Shown in pieces: positions 4,886 to 39,952 of a stretch of DNA of 64,000 nt (within the stretch, counting starts at the first letter, position 1; every line of letters begins with the position of its first letter). Position numbers and translations under genes: made by a program. The stretch is from a virus. The notes beneath the pieces were generated by a model. It did no database searches. It had not been told where the DNA came from and saw only the letters and a list, made by a program, of their open reading frames with translations. The stretch lies in the IMG/VR virus record IMGVR_UViG_3300035183_000733, positions 26,496 to 90,495 of that record, one strand, 5' to 3'.

Positions 4886-4895
4886 CAACAAATAT

Positions 4896-4985
4896 GGGTG
4901 TACGGTCGCGACGGTGGAGCGACCCCAGTCTGTAAAACTGGGACATTTAAAGAAACGCCGGGGGTTCGAAATCCCTCTACACCCA
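4896..4985 (+). tRNA. tRNA-Tyr (GTA)-like copy with 8-nt T-loop and A-rich variable region
   Basis: acceptor gggtgta/tacaccc perfect; anticodon arm ccagt-ctgtaaa-actgg identical to the neighbouring tRNA-Tyr; T-loop ttcgaaat. Confidence 0.5.
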
Positions 4986-4990
4986 CACAT

Positions 4991-5072
4991 TGAGGAGCGC
5001 TAACGTTGGAGAGTTAGACCAGTCTGTAAAACTGGTGCTTCGGCTGAGTGGGTTCGAATCCCATCTCCTCAA
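4991..5072 (+). tRNA. tRNA-Tyr (GTA)
   Basis: acceptor tgaggag/ctcctca; anticodon loop ctgtaaa; variable arm closed by a gc-ttcg-gc tetraloop. Confidence 0.8.
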
Positions 5073-5079
5073 CTTAAAT

Positions 5080-5163
5080 TGTCCGATCGCCTAATGGCAT
5101 GGCGCCGGGTTTTGGCCCCGGTGGGAAGTAATTCCTGTGTAGGTTCGACCCCTGCTCGGACAA
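5080..5163 (+). tRNA. tRNA with long variable arm, anticodon TTG (Gln-type)
   Basis: acceptor tgtccga/tcggaca; anticodon arm ccggg-ttttggc-cccgg is the same loop as tRNA-Gln(TTG) at 5282; 17-nt variable arm ggaa-gtaa-ttcc. Confidence 0.5.
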
Positions 5164-5281
5164 CAAGACATCGACAGAGGTACTCGTCCGCAGACGTGTG
5201 GAAAAGTGTGTGCTTGCGACCATTAAAGTCTCTGTGTATCCCAATAGGTAGGAAGTAATTACTCTGAATGATTGGGAATAC

Positions 5282-5354
5282 TGTCCTGTAGTGTAACTGG
5301 CAACACGTCGGGTTTTGGCCCCGAAGATTCCAGGTTCGAACCCTGGTGGGACAA
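5282..5354 (+). tRNA. tRNA-Gln (TTG)
   Basis: 73-nt cloverleaf; anticodon arm tcggg-ttttggc-cccga; T-arm ccagg-ttcgaac-cctgg. Confidence 0.8.
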
Positions 5355-5392
5355 CAAAACGAAATTTATTTCGTATCTTTGAAGTATTATAT

Positions 5393-5465
5393 TGTCCTGT
5401 AGTTCAACTGGCAGAGCGCCTGATTCTGGATCAGGATGTTGGAGGTTCGAACCCTCCCGGGACAA
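5393..5465 (+). tRNA. tRNA-Gln (CTG)
   Basis: 73-nt cloverleaf; anticodon arm cctga-ttctgga-tcagg; T-arm ggagg-ttcgaac-cctcc. Confidence 0.8.
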
Positions 5466-5529
5466 CATGGGAATTAAGAACAACAATTAGTAGATAGATG
5501 CTGTAATCCTAAATACACACAAAAGACTG

Positions 5530-7110: not shown

Positions 7111-7776
7111 TCAAGCCGCGCTATTCTTGATTCTTCGAGTCCACTTCTTTCTGACCTTCTTTATGTTCAGTAAAAGATTTCTCTCTTTTTTAATCATGTT
7201 GTCGACCTTGCTTATTGTGGTACCCAGTTCCTTCGCGATGTCTTTCATTATCACGTCACCCCGATGCTTAAGTATTATGTTTAACGCCGGGTATTTGTTC
7301 GGACATTTACGTAGCACATGCTTGGCCTTGTCGAGCTTGTCGAGCTGTACATCGTACTTTTTTCGGACCATCTCCTTTACCTGAAAGTGTATGTTTGAGT
7401 CTATGCCGGCATACCTCCTATACACGGACATGGTCTCGTTGCCCGAGAGGTGTAACTTGACATCCTCACATCTGTCGTACTTTGAATCTTGTTTGATCCA
7501 TTGCAAGCACTCCATGTATGCTATATGATGCAGCCAAGTGGTGAATTTAGACTTGGTCTTGTCAAATTTTTTATGATACTGTAACAACCGCAAGAATGTC
7601 TGCGACACTATATCGTCAGCAACTATAGGCCCCACTTTATTTGCTGCAAAATGCCGAATTTTCGACCCGAACACCTCGAACGCCATACCGACGAGCTCGG
7701 GGTCCTCGGCAATGCCATCTTGTATTATCCTTACCTTGTCTTTGTCCATAAGCATTATATCGCGACCATGACGCAT
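7111..7776 (-). CDS. RNA polymerase sigma factor, sigma-70 / ECF-like
   Basis: region 2 DDIVSQTFLRLLQY..FTTWLHHIAYMECLQWIKQ and region 4 HTH DIAKELGTTISKVDNMIKKER. Confidence 0.7.
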   Translation of the reverse strand: MRHGRDIMLMDKDKVRIIQDGIAEDPELVGMAFEVFGSKIRHFAANKVGPIVADDIVSQTFLRLLQYHKKFDKTKSKFTTWLHHIAYMECLQWIKQDSKYDRCEDVKLHLSGNETMSVYRRYAGIDSNIHFQVKEMVRKKYDVQLDKLDKAKHVLRKCPNKYPALNIILKHRGDVIMKDIAKELGTTISKVDNMIKKERNLLLNIKKVRKKWTRRIKNSAA

Positions 7777-8429: not shown

Positions 8430-9314
8430 TTATTTAGTATCCTTGTTAAAATTCTCGAACATCTTCAGGTGCCTCATCTCGTACCTGTGTCCCTCGTGCG
8501 CGACCGGCTCCTTGAAATTTATCACACCGGCCTTCAGTAGGTCAGACCAGGATCCCGCGCTGTCTTCCGCGTCGTCGGTCTGAGGCATCACGCTCCGGTC
8601 TGGTGCGTCCTTAACCGGCTGAGAGGTCTTTTGCATGTTGCTTACGTTGCCCCAGATGTAATCGGCGGACTCGTCTTTGCCGCCATGCTCTATCTTTTTG
8701 TTGTCGTTCAGCACTTGCACCGTGGTGTCCGATATTTTTGAAATGACGTAAGTCTTGAGCTTGCGCTCGCTTATCTTTAGCAGGTTATCGCCCTCCACCC
8801 TTGCCACTGGGAGATCCTTTAATTTGGCGACTATCGCCATCTGCACGGCCTTCAATACGGTCAGCGGATCCTCGTCAATAGTCATGTTCAGCGCGATCAT
8901 AGTCGCATGGTCGTTCATGACGTAAACCCGTGACCACCTGTGGTGACCGTCTATGATATACTTGCCATTCAGTGTTATTATCGGAGCCTTGATGACTATC
9001 TCTTTGCCCTTGAGTATCTCTCCGAGCTGACCCGGGAATTTGCCCTCGAGCTGGAATTTGAGGGACTTGTCCACATCTATCTCGTTCTGCGTGGGGTGCA
9101 GTTTCCTCACCGGTATCTCTATCTTCGTGAACGATACCCTCTCGTCGCCGAGCTTCCCGTCGCGCCTCCCGGCCCTTATGGCGGCAACGATCTTATCGTC
9201 GTCGGCCATCTCGCCGAGCTCCTTTACGAACTCCTCGTAGCTGAGGTTTAGGAGGTTCTTAAGTTTGTGGAGCGCCTCCGGCTTGGCGGTGGCACCTGGT
9301 CCTTTTTCTGCCAT
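8430..9314 (-). CDS. ParB-like nuclease domain protein
   Basis: IIDGHHRW motif; start reset to internal Met 36 (MAEKGPG, ATG at 9314) next to an AT-rich divergent promoter region. Confidence 0.65.
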   Translation of the reverse strand: MAEKGPGATAKPEALHKLKNLLNLSYEEFVKELGEMADDDKIVAAIRAGRRDGKLGDERVSFTKIEIPVRKLHPTQNEIDVDKSLKFQLEGKFPGQLGEILKGKEIVIKAPIITLNGKYIIDGHHRWSRVYVMNDHATMIALNMTIDEDPLTVLKAVQMAIVAKLKDLPVARVEGDNLLKISERKLKTYVISKISDTTVQVLNDNKKIEHGGKDESADYIWGNVSNMQKTSQPVKDAPDRSVMPQTDDAEDSAGSWSDLLKAGVINFKEPVAHEGHRYEMRHLKMFENFNKDTK

Positions 9315-9376
9315 GTTTAACTGGTTCAATTTTATTATATATCCAGCGATATATACATAAATTAACTCAAGCAGAG

Positions 9377-9607
9377 ATGAAGAAACTTGGACAATTACTC
9401 GAGAATTTCGACCAGACAAGGGTGCTCGAACTCATAGCCCAGATAGAGGCTGCACAGCAGGCAATGCAAGGAGCAGTGGCTTCCGTGAAGCTCGTGGAGG
9501 AAGAGCTCAGGGCAAACGGTCTCGGGTCGGTGGCAGAGAAGCTATCCGCGCTCGACTGGAACACCATCGACAGCATCAAGGAAGAGCTGCGCAATCAAGT
9601 CGCTTAA
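9377..9607 (+). CDS. hypothetical small coiled-coil protein
   Basis: ORF diverging from the ParB-like gene. Confidence 0.4.
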   Translation: MKKLGQLLENFDQTRVLELIAQIEAAQQAMQGAVASVKLVEEELRANGLGSVAEKLSALDWNTIDSIKEELRNQVA

Positions 9608-9610
9608 ACC

Positions 9611-9934
9611 ATGAAGAACCTCAAGAAATACGAGGGCTTTGCCGGAGAGGATGACAACCTCAGCCACGGCAAGAACTACATGCTCATATCCAACCTCAAG
9701 AAGATTAAGAGGATGGCATCGTACCTGCTCGACCGTGTTGATGATGAAGCTGACGTGGACGAGTGGGCGAAGGACCACATAGCCACATCGGCGGACGACA
9801 TCGAGGAGGTGTACAATTTCATAAAGGGTAAGGAGGACGAGCCTGATGAACTGGTATCCGATTCGGAGAAACTGGATGACATTCCGGCCAGCATACCCGT
9901 GTCGAGCAGGCGAGGGAGACCGCGTATAAACTAA
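9611..9934 (+). CDS. hypothetical acidic protein with C-terminal RGRP (AT-hook-like) motif
   Basis: ORF begins 4 nt after the previous stop. Confidence 0.45.
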   Translation: MKNLKKYEGFAGEDDNLSHGKNYMLISNLKKIKRMASYLLDRVDDEADVDEWAKDHIATSADDIEEVYNFIKGKEDEPDELVSDSEKLDDIPASIPVSSRRGRPRIN

Positions 9935-10071
9935 TGGAAGTTGCAAACCATCCGTACAAGGGAACAAATGAAGCACCTAAAGGCACTCCGCGCACGTAGA
10001 CGAGATGGCGATGATTACCAAGAAAGGTAAGAACGTCTACGTCGATAGCAGGCTGATAAAGGGACTCCAAC

Positions 10072-10455: not shown

Positions 10456-10857
10456 ATGTTCGACGACAAATTTTTCGATGAGGTGTTTGCCAGTTTCGGC
10501 AAAACCATGAAGTCTATAGAAGACGAGGCCAGCAAGTTCCGGAAGAGAATGGAAGAGCGCATGAAGGAGGTCATGGACCTCCCGCAGATGTTCGGCAAGC
10601 CGTACAACTACAAGGTTGAGACCGGCGAGGACGCCAACAGCACCTGGAAGCAGGAGACCTGGACGGACAAGTCGGGCATGTTCAAGTACAGCCGCAAGAC
10701 GGTGACGGCCAAGACCGGCTCGAAGATGACCAAGGAGGACGAGGTGAAGGCGCCGACCGTCGACGAGCTTAAGGCCAAGATGGAGGAGCACGCGAAGAAC
10801 CACGAGTATGAGAAGGCGGCCGAGCTGAGGGACATCATAAAGGAGATGTCAAAATAA
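10456..10857 (+). CDS. UVR-domain-containing protein
   Basis: C-terminal EYEKAAELRDIIKEM matches the UvrB/UvrC UVR motif. Confidence 0.5.
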   Translation: MFDDKFFDEVFASFGKTMKSIEDEASKFRKRMEERMKEVMDLPQMFGKPYNYKVETGEDANSTWKQETWTDKSGMFKYSRKTVTAKTGSKMTKEDEVKAPTVDELKAKMEEHAKNHEYEKAAELRDIIKEMSK

Positions 10858-10860
10858 ATT

Positions 10861-10884
10861 AAGGGGCTTAACGCCCCTTTATTA
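10861..10884 (+). terminator. rho-independent terminator
   Basis: AAGGGGC-ttaa-CGCCCCTTTATT. Confidence 0.6.
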
Positions 10885-11228
10885 TTCTATAAGTATCTTG
10901 TATCATCCCGGATTCGTCCAACCCGAATGCGAGCATCATGGGGTTCTCCAGGTCCTGTGATTTTATCACCACGAGGTAATCCCCTGTGCGTTTGTATATT
11001 TCGGCCCCCCGCTTATCAGTATGACGTGATGGTGCAGCTTAGGCTTCAGGACAGTGAAGTCGCCGGTGCCGATGGCTTGGATTAGGCGCACGGAGTTGGA
11101 ATTTGGTGGTGTCCTCGGTCCCCGATTTGGCGACCATGGGGGGCAGCGCGAGTGCCAGTATAATGAACAATTTCTTCATCCCTTTTAATATATATATCGA
11201 AAGCATTTTAAAATAACCCAACCATGAG

Positions 11229-15604: not shown

Positions 15605-15689
15605 GCCCAGGTGGTGGAATTGGTAGACACGCTACTTTGAGGGGGTAGTGTCGCAAGATGCACGAGTTCGAGTCTCGTCCTGGGTACCA
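15605..15689 (+). tRNA. tRNA-Leu (GAG), type II, CCA encoded
   Basis: GCCCAGG-TG-GTGGAATTGGTAGACAC..; anticodon arm ctact-ttgaggg-ggtag; T-arm acgag-ttcgagt-ctcgt; discriminator A then CCA. Confidence 0.8.
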
Positions 15690-15691
15690 TC

Positions 15692-15762
15692 GACCCTGTA
15701 GCTCAAGGGTAGAGCGCTGGTCTCTAAAACCGGGGTTGCGGGTTCGAATCCCGTCAGGGTCT
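15692..15762 (+). tRNA. suppressor tRNA, anticodon CTA (reads UAG amber)
   Basis: clean 71-nt cloverleaf: GACCCTG-TA-GCTC-AAGGGTA-GAGC-G-CTGGT-CTCTAAA-ACCGG-GGTT-GCGGG-TTCGAAT-CCCGT-CAGGGTC-T. Confidence 0.85.
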
Positions 15763-15788
15763 CATAAATAAAGTGAAGGAATAAGAAT

Positions 15789-16112
15789 ATGAATAAGAGT
15801 GATTTGACTGAGATCCAACTTAAGTGCCTCGGGTTTAGTAAGGGCATGAGTCGTTGGACCGGCAAGGAGGAGTGGCAGTGGGGGACGCAGACCATAATAG
15901 TGTCCGGCCAAACCGTATACGAACCGATACTCACGTACAACGATGAGACAGGGGTTTTGCGCGGCGACATAACGCACGAGTTTGGCACGATGAGCATGAA
16001 CAAGAAGGTGACTAACGCCAGACACCTGGAGCTCGCGATGGAGCTCGCCTCGGTGGTGATGTCAGGGATAGGACTGGAAAAATATCGCCCAGTATTGCCA
16101 GGATCAAAATAA
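15789..16112 (+). CDS. hypothetical protein
   Basis: ORF downstream of the tRNA pair. Confidence 0.45.
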   Translation: MNKSDLTEIQLKCLGFSKGMSRWTGKEEWQWGTQTIIVSGQTVYEPILTYNDETGVLRGDITHEFGTMSMNKKVTNARHLELAMELASVVMSGIGLEKYRPVLPGSK

Positions 16113-16147
16113 TCCCTATATTTATAGAACAATTCCGAAACAAAAAA

Positions 16148-16170
16148 GGATATATAGAATATAAGTTATA
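16148..16170 (+). promoter_or_regulatory. candidate promoter, GGATATATAGAATATAAGTTATA
   Basis: same motif as at 4361 and 20038; sits immediately before a leader ORF. Confidence 0.45.
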
Positions 16171-16248
16171 ATGAAGAAGATGATCAACATAGTGCTCGTG
16201 TTCCCAGTGTTCGTGTCGTTTAGCGGCTCCGGGCGTGTTCTTCGATGA
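16171..16248 (+). CDS. short leader ORF (25 aa, MKKMINIVLVF..)
   Basis: paralogous to the leader ORF at 25742 (MKQMINIV..); followed by a terminator then tRNAs. Confidence 0.3.
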   Translation: MKKMINIVLVFPVFVSFSGSGRVLR

Positions 16249-16282
16249 CTTCTAAGTAAAACATTCGAAAACATTATGAAAC

Positions 16283-16312
16283 GCCCGGACCGAAAGTTCG
16301 GGCGTTTTTTAT
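16283..16312 (+). terminator. rho-independent terminator / processing hairpin before the tRNA cluster
   Basis: AAACGCCCGGAC-cgaaa-GTTCGGGCGTTTTTTATTTTTT. Confidence 0.65.
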
Positions 16313-16317
16313 TTTTT

Positions 16318-16392
16318 GGGGCTTTAGCACAGATGGTCAGTTTGCGCTCGCCTGAAGAGCGAGATATTCGGGTTCGAGTCCCGAAGGTCCCA
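16318..16392 (+). tRNA. tRNA-Phe (GAA)
   Basis: anticodon arm ctcgc-ctgaaga-gcgag; T-arm tcggg-ttcgagt-cccga; acceptor ggggctt/aggtccc. Confidence 0.8.
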
Positions 16393-16505
16393 CGAGTGGT
16401 TTAAGCTGTTTTGTTTGCCTCGCAAATCAAAAATCGGCTATCCCGACCAAGTAGTTTATCGAGCCATGAAATGGTCTACTTAAAAAAAACATTGGAATGG
16501 CGCCA

Positions 16506-16579
16506 CGGGGTGTGGGAAAGTTGGTAATCCGCCTGGTTTGGGACCAGGAGTAGCGCAGGTTCGAGCCCTGTCACCCCGA
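16506..16579 (+). tRNA. tRNA-Pro (TGG)
   Basis: anticodon arm cctgg-tttggga-ccagg; T-arm gcagg-ttcgagc-cctgt; acceptor cggggtg/caccccg. Confidence 0.8.
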
Positions 16580-16592
16580 CAATAAGATTTAT

Positions 16593-16679
16593 GGTCCGAT
16601 AGCTCAGTTGGTTCAGAGCGCCTGTCTTACAAGCAGGAGGCGAAAGGTTCCGCAGGTTCGAATCCTGCTCGGACTACCA
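16593..16679 (+). tRNA. tRNA-Val (TAC) with enlarged 14-nt variable region, CCA encoded
   Basis: acceptor ggtccga/tcggact; anticodon arm cctgt-cttacaa-gcagg; T-arm gcagg-ttcgaat-cctgc; ACCA at 3' end. Confidence 0.6.
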
Positions 16680-16886
16680 AATTGTCCTTTGGATTCTTAC
16701 GAAGAACGTCGGCGCATTTTCTAAGGATGCTGTCCATCGCGGCGACTTATGCGGCTTGCAGGAGAACTTTACCGACACGGAGCACTTGGTAAAAAAACGT
16801 CCGTTTTGATAATCAAAATTTTCGAAGTGAACATTTTTTCTTAATCTTTGAACTAAATTGATCGTAGATGAAAATCCAGATCGGGA

Positions 16887-16963
16887 GTCCTCGTAGCTCA
16901 GTTGGTTAGAGTACCACCTTGACATGGTGGGGGTCACTGGTTCGAATCCAGTCGGGGGCACCA
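16887..16963 (+). tRNA. tRNA-Val (GAC), CCA encoded
   Basis: anticodon arm ccacc-ttgacat-ggtgg; T-arm actgg-ttcgaat-ccagt; ends GGGGGCACCA. Confidence 0.8.
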
Positions 16964-20192: not shown

Positions 20193-20196
20193 ATTT

Positions 20197-20267
20197 ACGG
20201 GCGTAGTTCAATGGTAGAATAGCGGTCTCCAAAACCGTTGATGGGGGTTCGAATCCCTCCACCCGTG
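20197..20267 (+). tRNA. tRNA-Trp (CCA)
   Basis: anticodon arm gcggt-ctccaaa-accgt; T-arm ggggg-ttcgaat-ccctc; 4-nt variable loop. Confidence 0.8.
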
Positions 20268-20313
20268 GGAATATTTAAGCTGATACCTCCACGTGGTATA
20301 TTCTGGTAACCCT

Positions 20314-20700
20314 TTATGGGGCTAAATTCAGCTTAGTGATTAGGATATTTTTGATAATATCAAAATACTTAGCACAGTTACGTTCTTTGAAGTATTTTAA
20401 TGAGGAAGTGTCTATTATGACTAATTCTATTCCGCGCTCTAAACAGGCCTGGAATTTATGATGGTCATTGTTACGTATCTGTTCCAATTTAGCTGAACCA
20501 TGGATTAGTTCATAATGGTATATGCCGTTAAGTTCGAACGCGAGTTTCATCGATGGAATATAGATGTCGAGCTCGGCATTGTTGCCAAGTTCGTTCGCGC
20601 GATTGCGGGAGTGCTCTACTACAAAGTGGAAGTCGATGGCGGAGCGTACGAATTCCCGGTAGACATGAACGACAAGGAAGATGTCGGCACTGCTACGTTC
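20314..20700 (-). CDS. DUF559 / Vsr-like endonuclease-fold protein (homing-endonuclease-like); start uncertain
   Basis: LDIYIPSMKLAFELNGIYHYE...KFQACLERGIELVII matches the D-x-Y-x-P..KLAIE-DG..H signature; the listed N-terminus runs into tRNA sequence and is not coding. Confidence 0.4.
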   Translation of the reverse strand, partial: ERSSADIFLVVHVYREFVRSAIDFHFVVEHSRNRANELGNNAELDIYIPSMKLAFELNGIYHYELIHGSAKLEQIRNNDHHKFQACLERGIELVIIDTSSLKYFKERNCAKYFDIIKNILITKLNLAP

Positions 20701-20820
20701 GACGCAGAGATCAAGGCGATAACGTTGATGCGTTACATACGCAAGGCCGACGTAAACACGACTTGCCCCCGGTGTTCCCACCGTGCTGCGGGCAGTCCAA
20801 AGCACTAACGGTGGGACATG

Positions 20821-20905
20821 GGGATTGTAGTCGGTAAGGGATGCCGGCCGGTTTGTGGAGCCGGAATGACAAAGTCTAATGCGGGTTCGAATCCCGTCTT
20901 TCCCC
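20821..20905 (+). ncRNA. tRNA-like element, atypical (good T-arm, weak acceptor, 5-bp stem with 11-nt loop)
   Basis: T-arm gcggg-ttcgaat-cccgt; acceptor gggattg/ctttccc pairs 5 of 7; ccggc/gccgg stem with oversized loop. Confidence 0.3.
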
Positions 20906-20918
20906 CAGGTTTTTTTAT

Positions 20919-20993
20919 GGTAGACGTAGCTCAATTGGTTAGAGCGCCAGATTGTGGTTCTGGAGGTTGTGAGTTCGATCCTCATCGTTTACC
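20919..20993 (+). tRNA. tRNA-His (GTG) with G-1
   Basis: extra 5' G pairs with discriminator C; anticodon arm ccaga-ttgtggt-tctgg; T-arm gtgag-ttcgatc-ctcat. Confidence 0.8.
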
Positions 20994-21065
20994 CAACGTT
21001 CCTCGGGCTATCGCAGCTACCGCGCTGTGTGTGGTCGCACGTGAGATAGGTCAAGGCTCACAAAT

Positions 21066-22177: not shown

Positions 22178-22252
22178 GGTCCCTTAGCTCAGGTGGTTTA
22201 GAGCAAATCACTCATAATGATAAGGTCGGGGGTTCAAGTCCCTCAGGGACCA
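22178..22252 (+). tRNA. tRNA-Met (CAT) (elongator Met or Ile-lysidine type)
   Basis: anticodon loop ctcataa; T-arm ggggg-ttcaagt-ccctc; acceptor ggtccct/agggacc. Confidence 0.75.
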
Positions 22253-22271
22253 CAATTAGAAAAGCAAAAGC

Positions 22272-22577
22272 ATGTCAGATTTTAAAGTAGAGCGGACTTA
22301 CAAAGAAGTCGGCGTCATTAAGAAGCAGGGCACAGACCTAACACACCTCGTAACAAAGTTCAATGGTCCCCTCGATGGTCTTAAAACAATGACCGTCAAA
22401 CCGGGCGTGGGCGAGTACTCGTGGGTGCAGAGCCTGATAGTCCCGCTCAAGAGCAACGAGACTATATACATTCACCCGGACCAGACCGGCGTCGGCGTCG
22501 GATTCGTCCGCATAATTCATTCCCATTTAAAGGCTATCGCCGTATTCCACAAGTCACATTTCGATACCATATTATGA
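22272..22577 (+). CDS. hypothetical protein
   Basis: stop overlaps the SET gene start (ATGA). Confidence 0.45.
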   Translation: MSDFKVERTYKEVGVIKKQGTDLTHLVTKFNGPLDGLKTMTVKPGVGEYSWVQSLIVPLKSNETIYIHPDQTGVGVGFVRIIHSHLKAIAVFHKSHFDTIL

Positions 22578-23092
22578 AGTGCGTGAGAGTCGGCAAGTCG
22601 GCGATTGTGGGCAAGGGACTGTTCGCGTGCGAGCCCATAAGACCAGGAGACGAAATCGCGGAATACGTCGGCCGCAAGCTAACCAACAAAGAATTCGACA
22701 TCTTGTTCTCCGCGGGCATGTGGCTCTATGCAGTTTCCGTGCCGAACGGCGTTATCGACGCCGCGGGGGCGGAGTGGGACGGTTATCCTGCAAAGTTCAG
22801 CAACGACGCCATGGGGCTAACAAGAACCGGCGCAAGGAACAACGCGACATTCAGGTACTCCGGCAAGAGGGGCAACTACCGGGTGCACATCGTGGCGACC
22901 AGGTACATAAAATCCGGCGACGAGATATTCACTTCATACGGCCGGAGCTATTGGAGCAATTTTAAAAATGAGCAAGAACTAAATAGAGCAGCCTGCATTA
23001 CTACGGTCTCGGTGAGGACCGGGAGAAGGATCCCCTCGACGACCCCCACTTCTACGACAGGATGCGGAGCATCGGATACACCAAGCGTGTGA
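22574..23092 (+). CDS. SET-domain protein lysine methyltransferase
   Basis: GKGLFACEPIRPGDEIAEYVG, FSNDAMG..NATF (NHSC-like), YIKSGDEIFTSYGRSYW; aligns along the viral vSET / SET core; start reset to ATG 22574. Confidence 0.8.
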   Translation: MKCVRVGKSAIVGKGLFACEPIRPGDEIAEYVGRKLTNKEFDILFSAGMWLYAVSVPNGVIDAAGAEWDGYPAKFSNDAMGLTRTGARNNATFRYSGKRGNYRVHIVATRYIKSGDEIFTSYGRSYWSNFKNEQELNRAACITTVSVRTGRRIPSTTPTSTTGCGASDTPSV

Positions 23093-23660
23093 TACCGTTG
23101 CCGATGAGGTGCGTCTGTATGTATATTACGAGCGACAAACCGGTTCGTCCATTGATGAATTGAAACCGGTATCCGGCCCGCGCAAGCATGAAATGAACGT
23201 GTATACTGCTCTCGAGTATGTGTTCACCAAGAAGGTGCTTAATCACGAGGAGCTTCGCATATCCATAAAAGAATGATAGGAGATATTTGTTTTTGGACGA
23301 CCAGAGACAGCCGGATGAAGTTGTAGGTTACGAAGGCATAGAATGGAGTCGTAAAAAAACGGTCACGAATTCGAAGATTACCTGAACCAGAACGGTATCC
23401 CCGACGTCATATCGTTTGACCACGACCACGACGACGAACATTACGACATAGACTGGGAGAAGGTATACTTCTTCGGGGAGCTATATTCGTACAAGGAGGA
23501 CACCGGTTTGGACTGCCTTAAGAAGCTCATCCGCAGGCTCACAATGAAGGAACCGCATCCGGACAACTGGCCGAGGTGCACGTCGCATTCACTCAATTCG
23601 GTAGGCCGGGCCGAAATAAACAAACTCCTCGAAACTTGGTCGTTTCCTCAATTTGGCCAG

Positions 23661-25887: not shown

Positions 25888-25961
25888 TGGTGTGTGACCA
25901 AGCTGGTTAAGGCACCTCCCTGATACGGAGGAAATCGTGGGTTCGACTCCCACCGCACCAA
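25888..25961 (+). tRNA. tRNA-Ile (GAT)
   Basis: anticodon arm cctcc-ctgatac-ggagg; T-arm gtggg-ttcgact-cccac. Confidence 0.75.
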
Positions 25962-25966
25962 CAAAT

Positions 25967-26019
25967 AGTCGCTTAGCTCAGTTGGTTGGTCCCCAGTTCG
26001 AGTCTGGAAGCGACTACCA
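25967..26019 (+). ncRNA. tRNA minihelix-like element (acceptor + D-region + T-arm + CCA, no anticodon arm)
   Basis: AGTCGCT-TA-GCTCAGTTGGTTGGT-CCCAG-TTCGAGT-CTGGA-AGCGACT-A-CCA; perfect 7-bp acceptor. Confidence 0.35.
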
Positions 26020-26085
26020 AGCCAGTCAATATGCGGGATGGCTTGCATTGTTACCGGACATTAAACCACCCGGGCGTTAGAGAAT

Positions 26086-26159
26086 GCACGCGTAGATCAA
26101 CTGGATAGATCACCTGACTACGGATCAGGAGGCTGGGGGTTCGAATCCTTTCGCGTGTA
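26086..26159 (+). tRNA. tRNA-Arg (ACG)
   Basis: D-stem gatc/gatc; anticodon arm cctga-ctacgga-tcagg; acceptor gcacgcg/cgcgtgt. Confidence 0.75.
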
Positions 26160-26221
26160 CAAAATGCCTCAGTAGTCCCGTCGGCTTCGGAACCGATAGG
26201 GCAGAATATGAATTAAGATAC

Positions 26222-26294
26222 GGTCCCGTAGCTCAGCGGATAGAGCATTTGCCTTCTAAGCAAAGGGTCACTGGTTCGAATCCAGTCGGGATCA
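26222..26294 (+). tRNA. tRNA-Arg (TCT)
   Basis: anticodon arm tttgc-cttctaa-gcaaa; T-arm actgg-ttcgaat-ccagt. Confidence 0.8.
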
Positions 26295-26369
26295 CAAAAA
26301 GTAAAGTTATGAAACTGAACATCAAAAAAAGTAAAACAGATCCCTAAGGAAGTCAATTCCAAGTTCGGA

Positions 26370-27167: not shown

Positions 27168-28595
27168 TTATGCGTACATCTCTTTCAAAGTTATGAATCG
27201 CCTGTGGTCGCCACAGGCGACGAGCAGGTCCTCCTTCTTGAACTCGGAAGGGTGGTGGTACCCGCAAGCGTTGGACATCTCGTGGATCTCTTTGCGCAGC
27301 TGCTTGATGTAGTTAGCTGCGCGGACGGATTTGAGCGTCGGGTCTATGCCGTTCTGCAGCCACTTGTTCTGTGTGGCCACGCCAGACGGACACCTGTTCG
27401 TGTGACAAACCTGTGCCTGGATACAACCGATGGACATCAGCGCTTCCCTACCGACGTTAACCATATCACAGCCGAGCGCAAATGCCTTTATGGCATTGGC
27501 TGGAAGCCCGAGCTTGCCAGACCCGATGAACACTACGTTGTCGAGCGCCGGGTAAACTCTGAATATTTTTATGATGCTGTGTATTGCCTCGTTGAACGGC
27601 AGAGACAGGTGGTCTGTGAATGATGGTGGTGCTGCACCAGTGCCGCCCTCGCCGCCGTCTATTGTGATGAAATCCGGGCCGAAACCGGACATGGCCATTT
27701 GCGTGGCGAGCTCCTCCCAGTCTTTTACGCTTCCAATCGCCGCCTTTATACCGACAGGCAGACCGGTTGCGTTTGCTATCTCTTCGATAAAGTTTATCAT
27801 GCTTGTCACGTCCTTGAACGCGCTGTGAGTGCTTGGCGACACGGCGGCCTTGCCCATTTCGATGCCCCTGGCGTCTGCGATCTCCTGTGTCATCTTCGCG
27901 GCCGGCAGAATTCCTCCCTTGCCGGGCTTCGCGCCCTGGGACAGCTTTATCTCGATTGCCTTTATGCAGGGATTATCTTGCACGAGTTTCTTCAGCTTCT
28001 CGAGCGAGAACTTACCCTTCTCGTCGCACACTCCGAAGTATCCAGTTCCGAACTGGAACACCACGTCAGCCCCTTGCTTGTGATACACTGACAATCCGCC
28101 CTCCCCAGTGTTGTGGTAACAACCAGCGAGCTTAGCTCCGCCGTTAAGTGACTCTACAGCCTTTGCCGATAACGCGCCGAAGCTCATGCCAGATATGTTC
28201 ACTATAGAGTTTGGTGTGTATGGTTTTGCACGCTTGCCTTTGCCGAGCTGTTTCTTGCATGGCAGGTGACCGATGTTGTCGGAGTGCACCGGCATCATCT
28301 TGTGCTTTATGATTATGTGACCGGGTTCGTTGAAGTCCATGTCTGTACCGAACCCTGTGAGGTTGTTCTCATCCTTCGCCGAGGCATATATCCAAGCTCT
28401 GTGTCGCCTCGAGAATGGAAGCTCCTCTCTATTGTTGGCGATGAAGTACTGCCGGATTTCTGGACCTATCTTCTCGAACAGATAACGGATGTGTCCTATC
28501 ACCGGGAAGTTGTGGGTTATTGCGTGTCTGTTTTGCATTATGTCGCGTATGGCAACTACGGCCAGGAAAGCGACGAACAATAATAAATATAACAT
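27168..28595 (-). CDS. glutamate-synthase (GltB) FMN-domain-like protein with N-terminal TM anchor
   Basis: ISGMSFGALS, KLSQGAKPGKGGILP, IDGGEGGTGAAP, FIGSGKLGLP motifs typical of GltS domain-2 family proteins. Confidence 0.8.
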   Translation of the reverse strand: MLYLLLFVAFLAVVAIRDIMQNRHAITHNFPVIGHIRYLFEKIGPEIRQYFIANNREELPFSRRHRAWIYASAKDENNLTGFGTDMDFNEPGHIIIKHKMMPVHSDNIGHLPCKKQLGKGKRAKPYTPNSIVNISGMSFGALSAKAVESLNGGAKLAGCYHNTGEGGLSVYHKQGADVVFQFGTGYFGVCDEKGKFSLEKLKKLVQDNPCIKAIEIKLSQGAKPGKGGILPAAKMTQEIADARGIEMGKAAVSPSTHSAFKDVTSMINFIEEIANATGLPVGIKAAIGSVKDWEELATQMAMSGFGPDFITIDGGEGGTGAAPPSFTDHLSLPFNEAIHSIIKIFRVYPALDNVVFIGSGKLGLPANAIKAFALGCDMVNVGREALMSIGCIQAQVCHTNRCPSGVATQNKWLQNGIDPTLKSVRAANYIKQLRKEIHEMSNACGYHHPSEFKKEDLLVACGDHRRFITLKEMYA

Positions 28596-29689: not shown

Positions 29690-31180
29690 TTATCTGTGTA
29701 TTGATAGACCAGCAATATAATTGTTTACGGCGAATACGGTATCGTTGTACAGCTCGGCAACCTTGTCGGAATCCGGCTCGTCCATCAGGTCGGCCTGCTC
29801 GAACGCGGTGCCGAGGTCCTTCAACTTCTGTGCTGCGTCGTCCATGAGCTTGTTCAGCTCCACCTTGCCGTACCGTATACTCTTCAGGTACTCGGCCTCC
29901 GGCCTCCTCACTATAATGCCGCGGCCGGCGGCGATGTCCTCGCTCATGTATATGAGGCGCATGCAATGCAGCATGTTCTTGCCGTCGATCTTCTGGTTGT
30001 GTCCCTCAACGTCGATCCACCTCGCCTCGTTACGCTCGCGCCTCCAGGTCATGTACCGGTTGTACAACTTGCAGTGGGACATGAAACCGTCCTTGTTGTA
30101 ACTCATGTAGCACATTGGTACTGCATCCTTAGGCGTCTTGCTTAGACGGATAGTATCCGAGTCGTCGAGCACGATGCCCTTGTACCCGAGCATCTTCAAT
30201 CCGTGTGATTTGACCCATTCAAGGGTCCGCTCCGGATCATCGGCGAAGTACGCACTGAACATGCCTCCGTTTAATTCCCCGAGATACCCACGGACTACAT
30301 CGTTGTCCTTTATATCTGTCGCAGGTCGAGCCCCCTCTATTATCTCTTTCAGGTACACGATGGTATGTGCGAGTCGGTCGTAATATACGCCATACATGTC
30401 GCGCATGTGCTCCACAGCGTTCAGCGCGCAGAACCTCTGTTCCATGCCTCTTTCGGAGAGCCACTGCTCTATGGGAACACTACCCTGACCAACGAACGTG
30501 TAGCAGAAGTCGAGTGGACCCTTGCGTTCCATCTTCTCCTTCTCCCAGTTGTTCAGCTTGTCCTGACCGTCGGCCTTGCGTATCTGACTCTCCCCGTAAC
30601 CGAGGAACGCCTTGTAACAAAGCTTCGACAGAAACACTTCCGGGCGTTTGAGCAATATGTCCATCTCTGGGTGTTTGTAAACGAGGCAGTCGTCCGGTAT
30701 GTCGAAAACCTCGAGCATGTTTGGGTTGTTCACCGCGAGCAGCGATATGAACTTGCGCATCGAGTAGTAAGTGGTCTCCTCGTTGGTTTCCATGTTCTTC
30801 TCCTTTATTTCCTCCCAGTCGGGGTTGAAATCGAACATGGAGTAGTACGAATCCGGGAATATGAACACGGCCTTGTAGTCGGTGTCGGACGTCGGCACGT
30901 TGGTGCCGTATGCCCTGCTGCCGGTTATGTACTTTAGCACGATGTACTGCTCGATGTCCTTTGACGTGAGGGCCTTCCGGAAGTTGTGCCTCGCGTGCCC
31001 GTACTCGAATCTGTACTTGTCGCCAAGGTAATCGACGTAGACGAACCCATCGAGTATGTCGGTAATGGGGAACGCGTAGTCCTTCTTCTCGAACACCCTC
31101 GTGCTGTCGTCGGTCACGCACAGTGCGGACATCTTATTCTCCACCTTGTAGAACTCTCCTATTTTGAGATTTATTAGCAT
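29690..31180 (-). CDS. nucleotidyltransferase (Pol-beta superfamily, GS...SDxD type), 496 aa
   Basis: YITGSRAYGTNVPTSDTDYKAVFIF is the minimal NTase signature (hGS-x9-13-SDhDh). Confidence 0.6.
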   Translation of the reverse strand: MLINLKIGEFYKVENKMSALCVTDDSTRVFEKKDYAFPITDILDGFVYVDYLGDKYRFEYGHARHNFRKALTSKDIEQYIVLKYITGSRAYGTNVPTSDTDYKAVFIFPDSYYSMFDFNPDWEEIKEKNMETNEETTYYSMRKFISLLAVNNPNMLEVFDIPDDCLVYKHPEMDILLKRPEVFLSKLCYKAFLGYGESQIRKADGQDKLNNWEKEKMERKGPLDFCYTFVGQGSVPIEQWLSERGMEQRFCALNAVEHMRDMYGVYYDRLAHTIVYLKEIIEGARPATDIKDNDVVRGYLGELNGGMFSAYFADDPERTLEWVKSHGLKMLGYKGIVLDDSDTIRLSKTPKDAVPMCYMSYNKDGFMSHCKLYNRYMTWRRERNEARWIDVEGHNQKIDGKNMLHCMRLIYMSEDIAAGRGIIVRRPEAEYLKSIRYGKVELNKLMDDAAQKLKDLGTAFEQADLMDEPDSDKVAELYNDTVFAVNNYIAGLSIHR

Positions 31181-38519: not shown

Positions 38520-39950
38520 TTATTGTGCTTCCCACATATACACCTGCGCTGTTGTCGTTCCAGTTTCAGTCCATGCAATATCGAATGATGTTGATGTGAC
38601 GTTCTGAATGACTCCCGAAATATAACTTCCCCCGCCTGTTGCTAAAAGTATTGCAAAGGTGGTTGAAGATAAACCCGCTTGAGTTGCGGTAATTGTTGCT
38701 CCGAATCGTTGATATACACACCTGTTTCCGCTTGAGTTCCATATACCAATAGATGATGTGGTTGCGGTTGCAGAGCTGTTTGCGGTAAATGTACCATAAC
38801 CATAAATTCTTATGATAGCTGGAACCTTTCCGAGACCATGTGTGATTGTTGTTGTTTGGGTAGCAGCTGGAGAAGTACCAACACCTGCTGTTGATAACGG
38901 GGCTCCAGAGTAACCAGAAACCCCAGATACTCCGCTGAACCCACTTCGACCGCTGAACCCAGATATTCCGGATGAGCCACTCGTACCGGAGAATCCTGAA
39001 GTACCTGCTGCACCGTTTGTTCCCGAGAATCCTGAAGTCCCGCTATAACCAGAAAACCCAGAGACCCCTGAGTAACCCGACATGCCGCTGAATCCAAAGA
39101 TCCCTGAGTAACCCGACAGCCCAGAAAAACCAGATGCGCCAGAGTATCCGGAGAACCCGCTTCGGCCGCTGGTACCAGAAACTCCGGAGTATCCGGAGAA
39201 CCCTGAGGAACCATTTGTACCGTCAGTACCACTGAATCCAGATACTCCAGAATAACCGGAGAAACCACTAATGCCGGAGAAACCGGACACGCCCGACACG
39301 CCCGAAAAACCTTGGGTCCCGCTGAAACCAGAAGTACCAGAAATACCGATATTTCCCGAATAACCCGACACGCCACTGAATCCGCTCACTCCAGAGACCC
39401 CCGACACGCCAGATGATCCACTCGTGCCGCTTATACCAGAATAACCGGATAAGCCGAGTCCTGAATAACCAGAGACCCCGCTAAATCCAGAAGCAGCTTG
39501 TGCATCCGCCAAATTTTGCGTTGTTATTAACTTTCCAGATGTACCAAGATCTGGTAGCTCTATCAGTACCGTCTGAGTCAAAGATCTTGGGTCGAATGAT
39601 ATTACGTCTGGACGCCATACAAGATCCTGCATGAACTCGTATATCTCGGCCCTTGTAAAGTAGTCGAGAATATTCTCAGAGTTCGGCATAACAAAATGCC
39701 TTCTGTACTCGTATTTCATCTCAGCGGAAACGCCAGACCAATTCGGAATAACGTGCGAATTTGCCGAGTCCTTCCAGTCAAAATACTCCATGCGCTTAAC
39801 TGAAAAGAACAAGTACAACGTCTCAGGCGAAGTGACGTCCGTGGCGCCATTGGTGGCAAAGTTATAGTTGTCCGGCACTATGTAATAGTTGCTCAACTGT
39901 CCGTCGACCGTAGATTGAATGCCGTTGCTATCTAATACTGCTATCCTCAT
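38520..39950 (-). CDS. collagen-like (Gly-X-Ser)n repeat fibre protein
   Basis: about 60 uninterrupted SG[FYVTIL] triplets; start reset to MRIAVLD so that it abuts the upstream stop. Confidence 0.7.
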   Translation of the reverse strand: MRIAVLDSNGIQSTVDGQLSNYYIVPDNYNFATNGATDVTSPETLYLFFSVKRMEYFDWKDSANSHVIPNWSGVSAEMKYEYRRHFVMPNSENILDYFTRAEIYEFMQDLVWRPDVISFDPRSLTQTVLIELPDLGTSGKLITTQNLADAQAASGFSGVSGYSGLGLSGYSGISGTSGSSGVSGVSGVSGFSGVSGYSGNIGISGTSGFSGTQGFSGVSGVSGFSGISGFSGYSGVSGFSGTDGTNGSSGFSGYSGVSGTSGRSGFSGYSGASGFSGLSGYSGIFGFSGMSGYSGVSGFSGYSGTSGFSGTNGAAGTSGFSGTSGSSGISGFSGRSGFSGVSGVSGYSGAPLSTAGVGTSPAATQTTTITHGLGKVPAIIRIYGYGTFTANSSATATTSSIGIWNSSGNRCVYQRFGATITATQAGLSSTTFAILLATGGGSYISGVIQNVTSTSFDIAWTETGTTTAQVYMWEAQ

Positions 39951-39952
39951 TT

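Follow-up and report, generated by a model that had tools for sequence, protein, structure and literature searches.

A putative SET-domain lysine methyltransferase gene and its translationally coupled companion in a megaphage genome

Lysine methylation of proteins by SET enzymes is characteristic of chromatin control in eukaryotes, and in bacteria it is known chiefly from effectors that intracellular pathogens secrete. The viral SET protein vSET (A612L) of PBCV-1, a eukaryote-infecting virus, carries the canonical NHS motif and methylates H3K27 of nucleosomal H3. MLL-type SETs require partner subunits for full activity, and the yeast SET enzymes Rkm1-4 and Efm1 methylate ribosomal proteins and eEF1A. 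To our knowledge, the small SETs of free-living Bacteroidota are a functionally uncharacterized family with no known substrate, and we know of no assays of any member of the N-D SET subfamily described below. Prokaryotic SETs have been reported to act on basic nucleoid proteins: cpnSET of Chlamydia pneumoniae binds and methylates Hc1 and Go1-SET of Methanosarcina methylates MC1-alpha; a further published case is BaSET, which methylates H1 (PMC10117894, PMC3980110). Within the literature library searched, no paper linked SET domains with jumbo, huge or mega phages.

A small ORF with a SET domain was located in the window, the name used here for the whole 64,000-nt stretch of viral DNA that was analyzed (IMG/VR record IMGVR_UViG_3300035183_000733, positions 26,496 to 90,495). 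Like PBCV-1 vSET (~120 aa), its product is predicted to be a viral minimal SET protein with a C-terminal YW-containing segment and no flanking Zn domains, and the fold matches in BFVD included M1IDW8, a 116-aa unnamed viral protein. Sequence similarity to vSET was marginal (1n3j, E 0.58 with a single sequence), and the phage SET, unlike vSET, is of the bacterial type and belongs to a phage whose host has no histone H3. The SET domains of LegAS4/RomA (Legionella), KMT2 (MLL) and EZH2 were the best structural and profile matches, but those proteins are large and multidomain, have a canonical NH and a post-SET, and are eukaryote-directed effectors or chromatin enzymes. With the small SETs of Bacteroidota ("SET domain-containing protein-lysine N-methyltransferase", Flavobacterium sp.; P0219, P0220, P0226) the ORF shares the 130-155 aa class, the motifs GxG, YxG, (Y/F)ANDAxG..NNA and GxEIFxxYGxxYW, 33-46% identity and the absence of both pre-SET and post-SET, except that it is carried by a phage and has a phage-specific 101-aa gene coupled to it.

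The SET ORF, its motifs and its family

The SET ORF (Table 1) matched Pfam SET (PF00856) with E 1.3e-10 and 42.1 bits over profile positions 1-105 of 105, the curated cut-off being 22.4 bits. A profile built from 60 family members matched KMT2D (2.5e-19), EZH2 (4e-16) and LegAS4 (5e-15) in PDB. The AlphaFold AF2 model (pLDDT 85.3, pTM 0.77) was compared with PDB using Foldseek, giving TM 0.65-0.72 to MLL1, EZH2, SETD2 and LegAS4 with probability 1.00, and the predicted structure appears to have the SET beta-fold. The score for NCBIfam T4SS_AnkI (33 bits) did not reach the 550-bit cut-off of that family.

Table 1. Features of the SET locus and of the Lys/Ala-rich (KAAK) ORF, in window coordinates
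Feature	Position	Strand	Details
tRNA-Met gene	22178..22253	+	ARAGORN and Rfam; 18 nt upstream of partner ORF
Partner ORF, basic protein	22272..22577	+	101 aa; TGA overlaps SET ATG (ATGA)
SET ORF	22574..23092	+	172 aa
SET domain core, residues 1 to ~133-134	22574..22975	+	Pfam SET, PDB profile, AF2/Foldseek, dN/dS
Non-conserved C-terminal extension of SET ORF	22976..23092	+	Homolog lengths, DNA alignment, coding score
Remnant of 112-aa gene	22987..23276	+	tblastn pieces 22987-23145 and 23148-23270; deletions of 4, 19 and 7 nt
KAAK ORF	3804..3980	+	58 aa, 21 Lys, 16 Ala, pI 11
Strongly structured region	3981..4335		Directly after KAAK; z -4.1

The GxG lies at G13-K-G15 and is followed by a further motif, Y31-x-G33. 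The NH-type block reads K-F-S-N77-D78-A, with Asp in place of His, and N89-N90 stands where PN is expected. The catalytic-Tyr position falls within E117-I-F-T-S-Y122-G, a segment that aligned to the catalytic-Tyr motif of KMT2 and EHMT1 and is followed by Y126-W127. Among 147 relatives, the positions of the AdoMet and catalytic motifs were kept in 141 (G13), 146 (G15), 147 (N77), 146 (N90), 147 (E117), 146 (Y122) and 141 (W127). The change from His to Asp is common to 135 of the 147 closest relatives, which argues that D78 is a family trait rather than a sign of decay. Across the phage clade, the window copy included, dN/dS was 0.05-0.07, pointing to a functional gene under strong purifying selection. 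There is no pre-SET, the ORF beginning 12 residues ahead of the GxG, and no Cys-rich Zn-binding post-SET (CxCxxxxC), the stretch after Y122 reading GRSYWSNFKNE... with no Cys cluster. The pre-SET/post-SET/AWS features of canonical eukaryotic KMTs (SUV39, EHMT, KMT2) were not found in the ORF.

The profile match, the predicted fold, strong purifying selection and the conserved positions of the AdoMet and catalytic motifs, with Asp for the canonical His, agree, and they support the claim, made in a preliminary description of this DNA, that the phage gene encodes a putative SET-domain lysine methyltransferase; the profile search, which covered the whole of the Pfam SET domain, bore out the proposed fold. 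The motifs named in that description fared unevenly: the GxG was found (G13, G15), the block called "NHSC-like" reads SNDA, and the segment called "post-SET GDEIFTSYG..YW" belongs to the SET-C core, with no Cys-rich post-SET. The motif-by-motif alignment with vSET and eukaryotic SET domains that it reported holds for the fold only, the gene belonging otherwise to a bacterial family dominated by Bacteroidota.

By its sequence, the gene is a member of a large "ANDA" family of small stand-alone SETs, overwhelmingly chromosomal in Bacteroidota. Alignments and column counts placed it there as a single domain of the 130-155 aa class with (Y/F)ANDAxG..NNA and GxEIFxxYGxxYW. A profile search collected 2290 family proteins at E<=1e-5, and all named members giving a taxon were from Flavobacterium, Bacteroidia or Bacteroidota. 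A genome scan found the family in at least 549 species genomes, with Bacteroidota accounting for 77 of the best 80. The one family member examined for its surroundings lies in a chromosomal bacterial context, with a GNAT acetyltransferase gene and an amidohydrolase gene downstream of it at the three places looked up (L010-12). Identity of the window SET to any member outside its own clade was 46% at most.

The preliminary description called SET proteins rare in phages. A sequence scan of IMG/VR found no SET relatives. A family member was found in 1 of 50,697 GenBank phage records (the 642-kb LR756502), and no PHROG matched the SET ORF, both in agreement with rarity. Against this, BFVD contains several phage SETs that match the fold: four entries named "SET domain containing protein" from uncultured Caudovirales phage, and one unnamed uncultured Myoviridae protein. 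The uncultured Caudovirales phage entries A0A6J5L8Y2, A0A6J5P3I3, A0A6J5PTS6 and A0A6J5SSB1 have predicted SET folds (Foldseek E 2e-6 to 1.4e-2) but are uncharacterized, are just 9-23% identical to the window SET over the aligned region, and were not recovered by the family sequence search of GenBank phages or IMG/VR. Phage SETs are already present in UniProt as a few uncultured-phage entries. SET genes were also found on phage contigs of 99 kb (L008) and with a T4 portal and gp2 (L013), in addition to LR756502. The phage SETs were not grouped in a single clade; the copy in LR756502 was 58% identical to Flavobacterium-type proteins.

Genomic setting, the coupled 101-aa ORF and the altered 3' end

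Judged by its T4-type PolB, which was closest to those of the 460-735 kb uncultured megaphages LR756504, LR756502 and LR745206 and to that of Lak-A2, the window is part of a megaphage related to 460-735 kb phages. Phage origin was also evident from a T4-type split topoisomerase II and from PolB PHROGs in the window. An origin from a giant eukaryotic virus, considered for the collagen repeats, SET and aaRS, was ruled out, megaphages being the best matches. The SET gene and the ORF that overlaps it lie in a part of the genome given over to tRNAs, aminoacyl-tRNA synthetases and replication and, from their position, are probably carried on one transcript with the tRNA cluster.

The overlapping ORF, referred to as the partner, adjoins and overlaps SET in the window and in related phage loci (L001, L005-7, L008-9 and L015, where it is frameshifted). 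In L008 the partner was 56% identical, whereas the SETs there were just 43-46% identical to the window SET. A distant partner homolog was found in L013, 8 kb away from SET, and the partner does not adjoin SET in L013 or LR756502, so that a phage SET can occur with no partner next door. The dN/dS of the partner was 0.16-0.18. Searches of Pfam, PHROGs and NCBIfam with it were negative, a profile search of PDB gave nothing beyond a match at chance level (E 1.3), and GenBank phages, IMG/VR and JGI yielded no relatives. The AF2 single-sequence model (pLDDT 33) was useless, and hhalign against the SET profile was negative for the partner as a split SET half. On conserved gene order, the closest genomic companion of SET is this ORF and not the KAAK ORF; the evidence of linkage, which the preliminary description overlooked, is far better for the partner than for KAAK.

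Close SET homologs end at 137-139 aa, and the remainder of the window ORF is not conserved. The extension takes its first ~8 codons, in frame, from the beginning of the downstream gene, continues for ~33 codons out of frame and ends at a TGA. In DNA alignments to L001, L015 and L005 the window carries deletions of 4, 19 and 7 nt, so the last ~33 aa are a read-through, out of frame, into what remains of a decayed 112-aa gene; this tail scored -0.24 for coding in the frame of SET and +0.28 in a different frame. The 112-aa gene is intact in related phages; the window copy is broken by the deletions across reading frames and lacks a usable start, by which it is judged a pseudogene. An assembly error was ruled out as the source of the tail, the identical SET ORF being found on a contig (L004) for which two sequencing samples are on record. 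TAG recoding was likewise rejected as the cause of the ORF boundaries, since neither SET nor the partner nor KAAK contains an in-frame TAG; no convincing TAG-containing genes were seen in the window, though an amber-suppressor-type tRNA is present. The indel lies past the start of the conserved YW helix and leaves SET residues 1 to ~133 unharmed. The 3' indel and junk tail may nonetheless cause some functional impairment of SET in this lineage, since in other SETs the C-terminal helix region is near the substrate site.

The Lys/Ala-rich ORF

The preliminary description paired the SET gene with a histone-H1-like protein encoded by the KAAK ORF. The KAAK product is rich in Lys, Ala, Pro and Thr (36% K, 28% A) and is predicted to be a disordered polycation; no other ORF of this composition was found in the six frames of the window. 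Its coding score was +15 bits in its own frame and -3.5 to -66 in the other five. The ORF lies on the strand of its neighboring genes, starts with ATG and ends with TAA, is preceded by an A-rich leader in the manner of other genes in the window, and was called as a gene on 3 contigs in the public collection, where the copies found were identical only. Codon choice is atypical (AAA 43% vs 21% and GCT 50% vs 16% in long genes), and mixed synonymous codons, with no more than a weak repeat in the DNA (15 nt x 2.8), indicate that the composition is selected at the protein level. KAAK is, on these coding features, probably a separate, real gene for a polycationic disordered protein, and as such a candidate nucleic-acid-binding protein. 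That the ORF is instead untranslated, either an ORF arisen by chance in an A/G-rich spacer or part of a non-coding RNA leader of the structured RNA and tRNA array downstream, appears unlikely: it has few codons, lacks homologs, makes atypical codon choices and is followed directly by a strongly structured region, but the frame-specific coding score, the mixed synonymous codons, the ordinary start, stop and leader, the shared strand and the absence of any second such ORF in the window speak against it. ARAGORN and Rfam gave no support to the structured region as a tmRNA.

Searches with KAAK gave nothing in Pfam (E<=1), PHROGs or NCBIfam and a chance-level match in PDB (E 4.1), and of 1289 word-index candidates from 5.8 billion proteins none was significant. 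A tblastn search of GenBank phages also returned no match, owing to its low-complexity filter. It did not match the profiles of chlamydial Hc1 (PF07432) or HC2 (PF07382), and it lacks the globular domain and the Pfam match of linker histone H1/H5, being all low-complexity. Relatives of the upstream 610-aa gene, used as a test of KAAK synteny, were absent from IMG/VR, JGI metagenomes and GenBank phages. With no detectable homology, the resemblance of KAAK to H1 and Hc1 tails is compositional only; the comparison drawn in the preliminary description is apt for tail-like composition and fails for family and globular domain, no Pfam family having been found at E<=1.

Candidate targets of the SET protein

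We favor, with moderate confidence, a reading in which the gene encodes a functional minimal SET methyltransferase that, with its coupled partner, acts on basic nucleic-acid-associated proteins in infection. The SET product would be a minimal (~135 aa) AdoMet-dependent protein-lysine N-methyltransferase from a family that is chromosomal in Bacteroidota and may have been captured more than once by large T4-like phages and megaphages. It would be expressed together with the upstream, translationally coupled 101-aa protein as a two-gene module, in which the partner would most likely be a specificity or activating subunit of SET, or else its substrate; the partner dependence of MLL-type SETs is a possible analogy. 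During infection the module would methylate lysines in one basic protein, or a few, associated with nucleic acids; these might be nucleoid or ribosome-associated proteins of host or phage, as K/A-rich tails fused to bacterial relatives and the published precedents suggest. For the class of substrate this is a guess, drawn by analogy and from fusions that just ~2-3% of the family carry. Since the canonical NHxC His is missing, we infer the activity of SET rather than take it as shown.

The same missing residue, ND where NH is canonical, could mean that SET is a catalytically dead or decaying passenger from a Bacteroidota host, a view to which the 4-nt deletion that altered the 3' end, the fused junk and the neighboring 112-aa pseudogene would add. 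We regard this as very improbable: N-D is the norm of the family, the remaining motif residues are kept, the low dN/dS over the phage clade includes the window copy, the indel comes after the start of the conserved YW helix with the core residues before it intact, and this allele is found again on a contig on record for two samples. If SET is active, its targets with the partner might lie in the translation apparatus, that is, ribosomal proteins or elongation factors of the host or translation factors encoded by the phage, as one element of a seizure of protein synthesis by the megaphage. SET stands amid translation-related genes in every related phage locus, with tRNA-Met just upstream of the module in the window and with TyrRS/TrpRS-like, HisRS-like and ArgRS-like fragments, an RRM protein, a cold-shock domain protein and peptide deformylase near SET in L001, L005-9 and L013; at two loci a K/A-tailed bS20 is encoded 3 kb from the bacterial SET, and eukaryotic SET enzymes act on ribosomal proteins and eEF1A. 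Proximity is weak evidence, however, given that translation islands of megaphages are large and heterogeneous, and a conserved bacterial neighborhood with ribosomal genes is lacking, the member described above (L010-12) lying beside GNAT/amidohydrolase genes. We rate this possibility as rather low but not negligible.

Lower still stands the pairing put forward in the preliminary description, in which SET and KAAK would be writer and substrate and SET would methylate an H1-like polycation that coats phage or host DNA, tuning its compaction in a chromatin-like form of control. KAAK is apparently a real gene with the composition of an H1 tail, and the methylation of Hc1 by cpnSET, of H1 by BaSET and of MC1-alpha by Go1-SET offers precedents; prokaryotic SETs reported to methylate their own basic nucleoid proteins (cpnSET with Hc1/Hc2, Go1-SET with MC1-alpha) provide the analogy, except that KAAK has no match to Pfam Hc1/HC2 and that neither linkage nor co-conservation was seen here. 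Fused C-terminal K/A-rich, H1-like tails occur in ~2-3% of bacterial family members, polycationic tails being carried by L038, L094, P0082, P0055, P0177 and P0186, and those of P0082, L094 and L038 may be taken as a hint of the Rosetta-stone type; the tail of P0082, AKAKKAAKKKTPVKKAAPKKAAAKK, closely resembles KAAK. Such fusions are rare, and K/A tails are also found on unrelated Bacteroidota proteins, e.g., bS20. Likewise, the SET-positive LR756502 has 3-4 proteins with K/A/P-rich tails and the SET-negative LR756500 has none such, but this compares one genome with one genome and is confounded by GC (31.5% vs 24.3%). The two genes are 18.6 kb apart, with more than 12 tRNA genes and many ORFs between them, and no K/A-rich ORF was found within ~0.8-10 kb per side of SET in L001, L002, L004-L009 and L013-L015. 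Co-conservation cannot be shown for a protein with no detectable homologs, and the tight linkage belongs to the partner instead of KAAK. Genomic support for the pairing, in distance, synteny and co-conservation, was thus absent. The bacterial K/A-tail fusions keep the idea weakly alive, and KAAK is one possible SET substrate among several. A wider version, in which the megaphage SET with a dedicated 101-aa subunit would methylate KAAK and/or host nucleoid proteins and so control compaction or accessibility of phage or host DNA, strikes us as a long shot, slightly less probable again than the pairing itself. The phage genome in that version would be one of more than 0.2 Mb.

The finding, a functional minimal SET with a coupled partner as the favored reading, is a solid annotation with a testable hypothesis and not a new mechanism. 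If KAAK were the target, it would be a phage analog of histone modification, and with a methylating SET/KAAK/nucleoid system, if true, a bacteriophage would for the first time be seen to encode nucleoid control based on lysine methylation. A phage SET under strong purifying selection, together with its conserved companion, offers a compact and tractable entry to the function of the whole bacterial family, and the targets of SET and its partner would reveal whether large phages seize the host nucleoid or translation machinery by lysine methylation.

The SET domain and its boundaries

The 172-aa ORF that the preliminary description had read as a SET-domain lysine methyltransferase matched Pfam SET (PF00856) over profile positions 1–105 of 105 (E 1.3e-10, 42.1 bits, cut-off 22.4); a PHROG search gave no match. 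Searched as a single sequence against the PDB, it weakly matched EHMT1 and EZH2 (~2e-3), and vSET was returned at E 0.58, while a profile of 60 relatives retrieved KMT2D (2.5e-19), EZH2 (~4e-16) and LegAS4 (5e-15). An AlphaFold2 model with 51 homologues as input (pLDDT 85.3, pTM 0.77) was superposed on MLL1, EZH2, SETD2 and LegAS4 with TM 0.65–0.72 and probability 1.00. The Pfam match, the profile comparison and the model together confirm the predicted SET fold, beyond chance by a wide margin, and bear out the original assignment.

The GxG motif was found as described (G13-K-G15), together with Y31-x-G33, E117-I-F-T-S-Y122-G and Y126-W127. The block called NHSC-like retains its Asn but has Asp in place of His (K-F-S-N77-D78-A, thus SNDA), with N89-N90 further on. 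When 1.84 billion representatives were scanned exhaustively, the 147 closest relatives kept N77 and E117 in all 147 proteins, N90 and Y122 in 146 each and W127 in 141. Because position 78 is Asp in 135 of these proteins and His in 2, the substitution appears to be a family trait and no lesion. The residues 'GDEIFTSYG..YW' are present, but their reading as a post-SET region was rejected, as the segment is part of the SET-C core; the ORF contains no Cys-rich pre-SET or post-SET.

Three close homologues (77%–94% identity) are 137–139 aa long and end right past ...YWSNFKNE. DNA alignment with three related phage contigs (L001, L005 and L015) placed deletions in the window of 4 nt at ~22966, 19 nt at 22992/22993 and 7 nt at 23146/23147. 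The 4-nt deletion joins SET in frame with the opening codons of a downstream 112-aa gene, and the 19-nt deletion takes the reading out of frame as far as a TGA at 23090. The downstream gene, which overlaps SET in relatives and is intact in the same three contigs (88%–93% mutual identity), is reduced in the window to two out-of-frame pieces (22987–23145 and 23148–23270). The SET tail scored −0.24 per codon for coding in the SET frame and +0.28 in another frame. The last ~33 residues are thus junk, which leaves residues 1 to ~133 as the functional unit. An identical 172-aa ORF with the decayed 112-aa allele lies on contig L004, for which two sequencing samples are on record, so an artefact of a single assembly was rejected as the source of this allele.

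An overlapping 101-aa partner

The SET gene is preceded by an overlapping 101-aa ORF, and the same overlapping pair is present in the related contigs L001, L005–7 and L008–9; in L008–9 the partner is 56% identical to that of the window, versus 43%–46% for SET. L015 has the pair too, with a frameshift in the partner. L013, a T4-like contig (T4 portal, gp2), has a partner homologue (34% identical) 8 kb from SET, and in LR756502, a 642-kb uncultured megaphage with SET, the gene upstream of SET differs. The partner is basic (pI 9.3), with E63, H68, Q71, R80, H83 and H96 invariant. It gave no match in Pfam, PHROG, NCBIfam, GenBank phages, IMG/VR or JGI, and only a chance-level one in the PDB (E 1.3); its single-sequence structure model reached a pLDDT of 33 only. 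Comparison with SET rejected the possibility that it is a SET fragment. A tRNA-Met gene lies 18 nt upstream.

Within the phage clade, dN/dS was 0.05–0.07 for SET and 0.16–0.18 for the partner; these low values argue that both genes are maintained by selection, and it is very improbable that SET is a dead passenger gene. The partner, overlooked in the preliminary description, is the real companion of SET and a better lead than the Lys/Ala-rich KAAK ORF proposed there.

Features of the window and of related phage and bacterial loci (window unless another record is named)
Feature	Position	Strand	Remarks
101-aa partner	22272..22577	+	TGA overlaps SET ATG (ATGA)
SET ORF	22574..23092	+	172 aa
112-aa gene remnant (pseudogene)	22987..23276	+	broken by 4-, 19- and 7-nt deletions
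KAAK ORF	3804..3980	+	58 aa, 21 Lys, 16 Ala, pI 11
Stretch between KAAK and tRNA array	3981..4335	+	355 nt
tRNA clusters (four, 20 genes)	4607..5466, 15605..16963, 20196..20994, 25888..26295
tRNA, anticodon CUA	15692..15763	+	ARAGORN label 'Pyl'; 67.7 bits vs Rfam tRNA
Collagen triple-helix repeat genes (four, large)	38520..47727	-	Pfam Collagen, E 1e-16 to 1e-54
T4-type family B DNA polymerase, apparently split	53802..55651	-	412-aa C-terminal part beside 203-aa upstream ORF
Host-like auxiliary genes	27168..28595, 29690..31180, 493..1581, 7111..7776	-, -, +, -
LR756502.1 K/A/P-rich-tail proteins	529986..530522, 111243..111599, 337850..338071	-, +, -
L001 topoisomerase I domain	10556..11187		PF01028
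L013 adenosine deaminase	9030..10001		immediately upstream of SET
bS20, bacterial locus L027	1959..2291	-	KAAK-type C-terminal extension
bS20, bacterial locus L069	1979..2317	-	KAAK-type C-terminal extension
Tail-fused SET, bacterial locus L094	3611..4141
Tail-fused SET, bacterial locus L038	4947..5618

A bacterial-type SET gene in a megaphage

The window comes from a megaphage. It carries 20 tRNA genes, a class I Glu/Gln-type tRNA synthetase, UvrD helicase, T4-type two-subunit topoisomerase II, a RecA/UvsX-like ATPase, four collagen-repeat proteins and a split family B polymerase that matched phage PHROGs at 2e-74. The closest polymerase matches by tblastn (39%–53% identity) were the uncultured 460–735 kb megaphages LR756504, LR756502, LR745206 and LR756500 and Prevotella phage Lak-A2. 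The matches in other megaphages are likewise in two pieces, which points to an intron, an intein or a gene that is truly split in these phages. Start codons follow A-rich leaders without Shine-Dalgarno motifs, and the dominant stop is TAA. TAG is the stop in only 2 of 62 window ORFs, a tRNA of amber-suppressor type is encoded, and LR756500 gains ~45% more ORFs once TAG is read as sense; no convincing gene with in-frame TAG was found in the window. These observations suggest that stop codons are recoded partially, or in late genes, in these phages.

Several isoacceptors occur as long and short copies (Asn 90/75, Tyr 91/83, His 86/75, Val 87/77 and Gln 85/74 nt); two long copies score poorly against Rfam, and the long copies may contain introns or insertions. 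The collagen-repeat genes, which flank a 703-aa ORF without family and the gene of a 254-aa protein with a virion-structural PHROG match, probably form a fibre or structural cluster. The auxiliary genes encode a glutamate-synthase-domain protein (E 1.8e-76), an RlaP RNA-repair-associated nucleotidyltransferase, an ARPP-1 domain protein and a sigma-70 region 2 protein.

In the scan of 1.84 billion representatives, only the 50%-identity cluster of SET itself fell below 1e-30; all further relatives were ≤46% identical and mostly small stand-alone SETs of ~120–160 aa. Searching 5.8 billion proteins with a profile gave 2290 members at E≤1e-5, and the named members giving a taxon were all Flavobacterium, Bacteroidia or Bacteroidota, labeled 'SET domain-containing protein-lysine N-methyltransferase'. 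With one genome scanned for each prokaryotic species, at least 549 loci were found, of which the best 80 included 77 from Bacteroidota (Chitinophagaceae, Flavobacteriales, Sphingobacteriaceae, Cytophagaceae and others) and 2 from Geobacteraceae; the one bacterial member examined had an ordinary chromosomal context. This membership indicates a SET gene of bacterial type, and from the same affinity we infer a probable Bacteroidota host. The likeness to vSET and eukaryotic SETs noted earlier holds for the fold and nothing beyond. The SET annotation is right, with subfamily, motif and C-terminus in need of correction.

SET was also found in the same-clade contigs L001, L005–7 and L015, the related 99-kb contig L008, L013 (41%–45% identical, beside an adenosine deaminase gene) and LR756502, whose 147-aa copy contains 'YANDAEGL' and 'GDEIFTGYGKEYW' and is 58% identical to Flavobacterium-type proteins. 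In a crude NJ tree the window clade had 100% bootstrap and phage SETs formed no single clade, for which several independent captures from hosts would be the simplest reading. The topoisomerase I domain of L001 (eukaryote/poxvirus-type) and the adenosine deaminase are unusual phage cargo. The stated rarity of SET in phages stands in GenBank (1 of 50,697 phage records, LR756502), and an IMG/VR pattern scan found nothing, but BFVD lists four entries 'SET domain containing protein [uncultured Caudovirales phage]' and one unnamed SET-fold protein of an uncultured Myoviridae; its other named matches are, with few exceptions, from giant viruses that infect eukaryotes. Among the papers searched, none treats SET domains of jumbo, huge or mega phages. 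The window gene is a SET of bacterial type carried by a megaphage, and databases already list a few phage SETs, all uncharacterised.

The KAAK ORF and candidate targets

The 58-aa Lys/Ala-rich ORF exists as reported and is the sole one of such composition across all frames of the window. It lies 84 nt past a 610-aa gene with which it shares the strand, starts with ATG behind an A-rich leader and stops with TAA, scores +15 bits in frame with the other five frames negative, and is called on three contigs in public gene sets; its codon choice is somewhat atypical. A simple DNA repeat was rejected (weak 15-nt x 2.8 array only). These features suggest a real gene, and it is quite unlikely that the ORF is untranslated. 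Pfam, PHROG, NCBIfam, the PDB, GenBank phages and 5.8 billion proteins held no detectable homologue or family, and membership of Hc1, HC2 or linker histones failed, which argues that the proposed resemblance to tails of H1 and Hc1 is one of composition alone. The stretch that follows folds far better than shuffled sequence (z −4.1) and has, near 4262, a T-arm-like GGTTCGAATCC. Neither ARAGORN nor Rfam returned a tmRNA or other family there, and the stretch may represent a structured RNA of no assigned class or a degenerate tmRNA-like element.

Writer-substrate pairs are published: cpnSET is reported to bind Hc1 and to methylate it, and methylation of MC1-alpha by Go1-SET and of H1 by BaSET is reported as well (PMC10117894, PMC3980110). 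We also observed bacterial SET family members with a fused C-terminal polycationic tail of KAAK type (P0082, '...AKAKKAAKKKTPVKKAAPKKAAAKKKAAVKPAVKKKAAAPKK'; L094, L038, P0055, P0177 and P0186), a new observation suggesting that these enzymes may act on or near polyanions, in the nucleoid or ribosome. Such fusions are rare, however (2 of the best 80 of at least 549 genomic loci; ~5 of ~270 retrieved proteins), and unrelated Bacteroidota proteins, bS20 among them, have K/A tails too. LR756502 encodes 3–4 proteins with K/A/P-rich tails, one with an H1-like layout (N-terminal globular part and C-terminal 'KKPAKKVAAKKAAPKKVAAKK' tail), and SET-negative LR756500 none of that type, but this compares one genome each, GC confounds it (31.5% vs 24.3%), and the tailed proteins are far from the LR756502 SET gene, which is located at 208.3 kb. 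In the window SET and KAAK are 18.6 kb apart, and no related phage locus has a K/A-rich ORF within ~0.8–10 kb per side of SET. Relatives of KAAK's neighbor genes were absent from every collection searched, and the copies of KAAK that were found are identical ones. That SET writes on KAAK is decidedly improbable; the chromatin interpretation is a legitimate hypothesis, weakly supported.

The translation apparatus is an unlikely target of SET, although the SET neighborhood in related phage loci is consistently rich in translation genes. In the two bacterial loci L027 and L069, of which one is labeled Chitinophaga pinensis and one is a Bacteroidia MAG, a bS20 gene lies ~3 kb from SET; this bears on the translation reading and may be coincidence.

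Our preferred reading takes SET, whose family, fold, motifs, selection and linkage are shown, to be a minimal lysine methyltransferase that derives from Bacteroidota and would be functional. It would be made together with a dedicated 101-aa partner, putatively a subunit or substrate, and would modify basic nucleic-acid-associated proteins in infection. To our knowledge, no phage SET enzyme and no Bacteroidota small-SET family member has a known substrate. The two-gene partner-SET module offers an accessible route to such a substrate.
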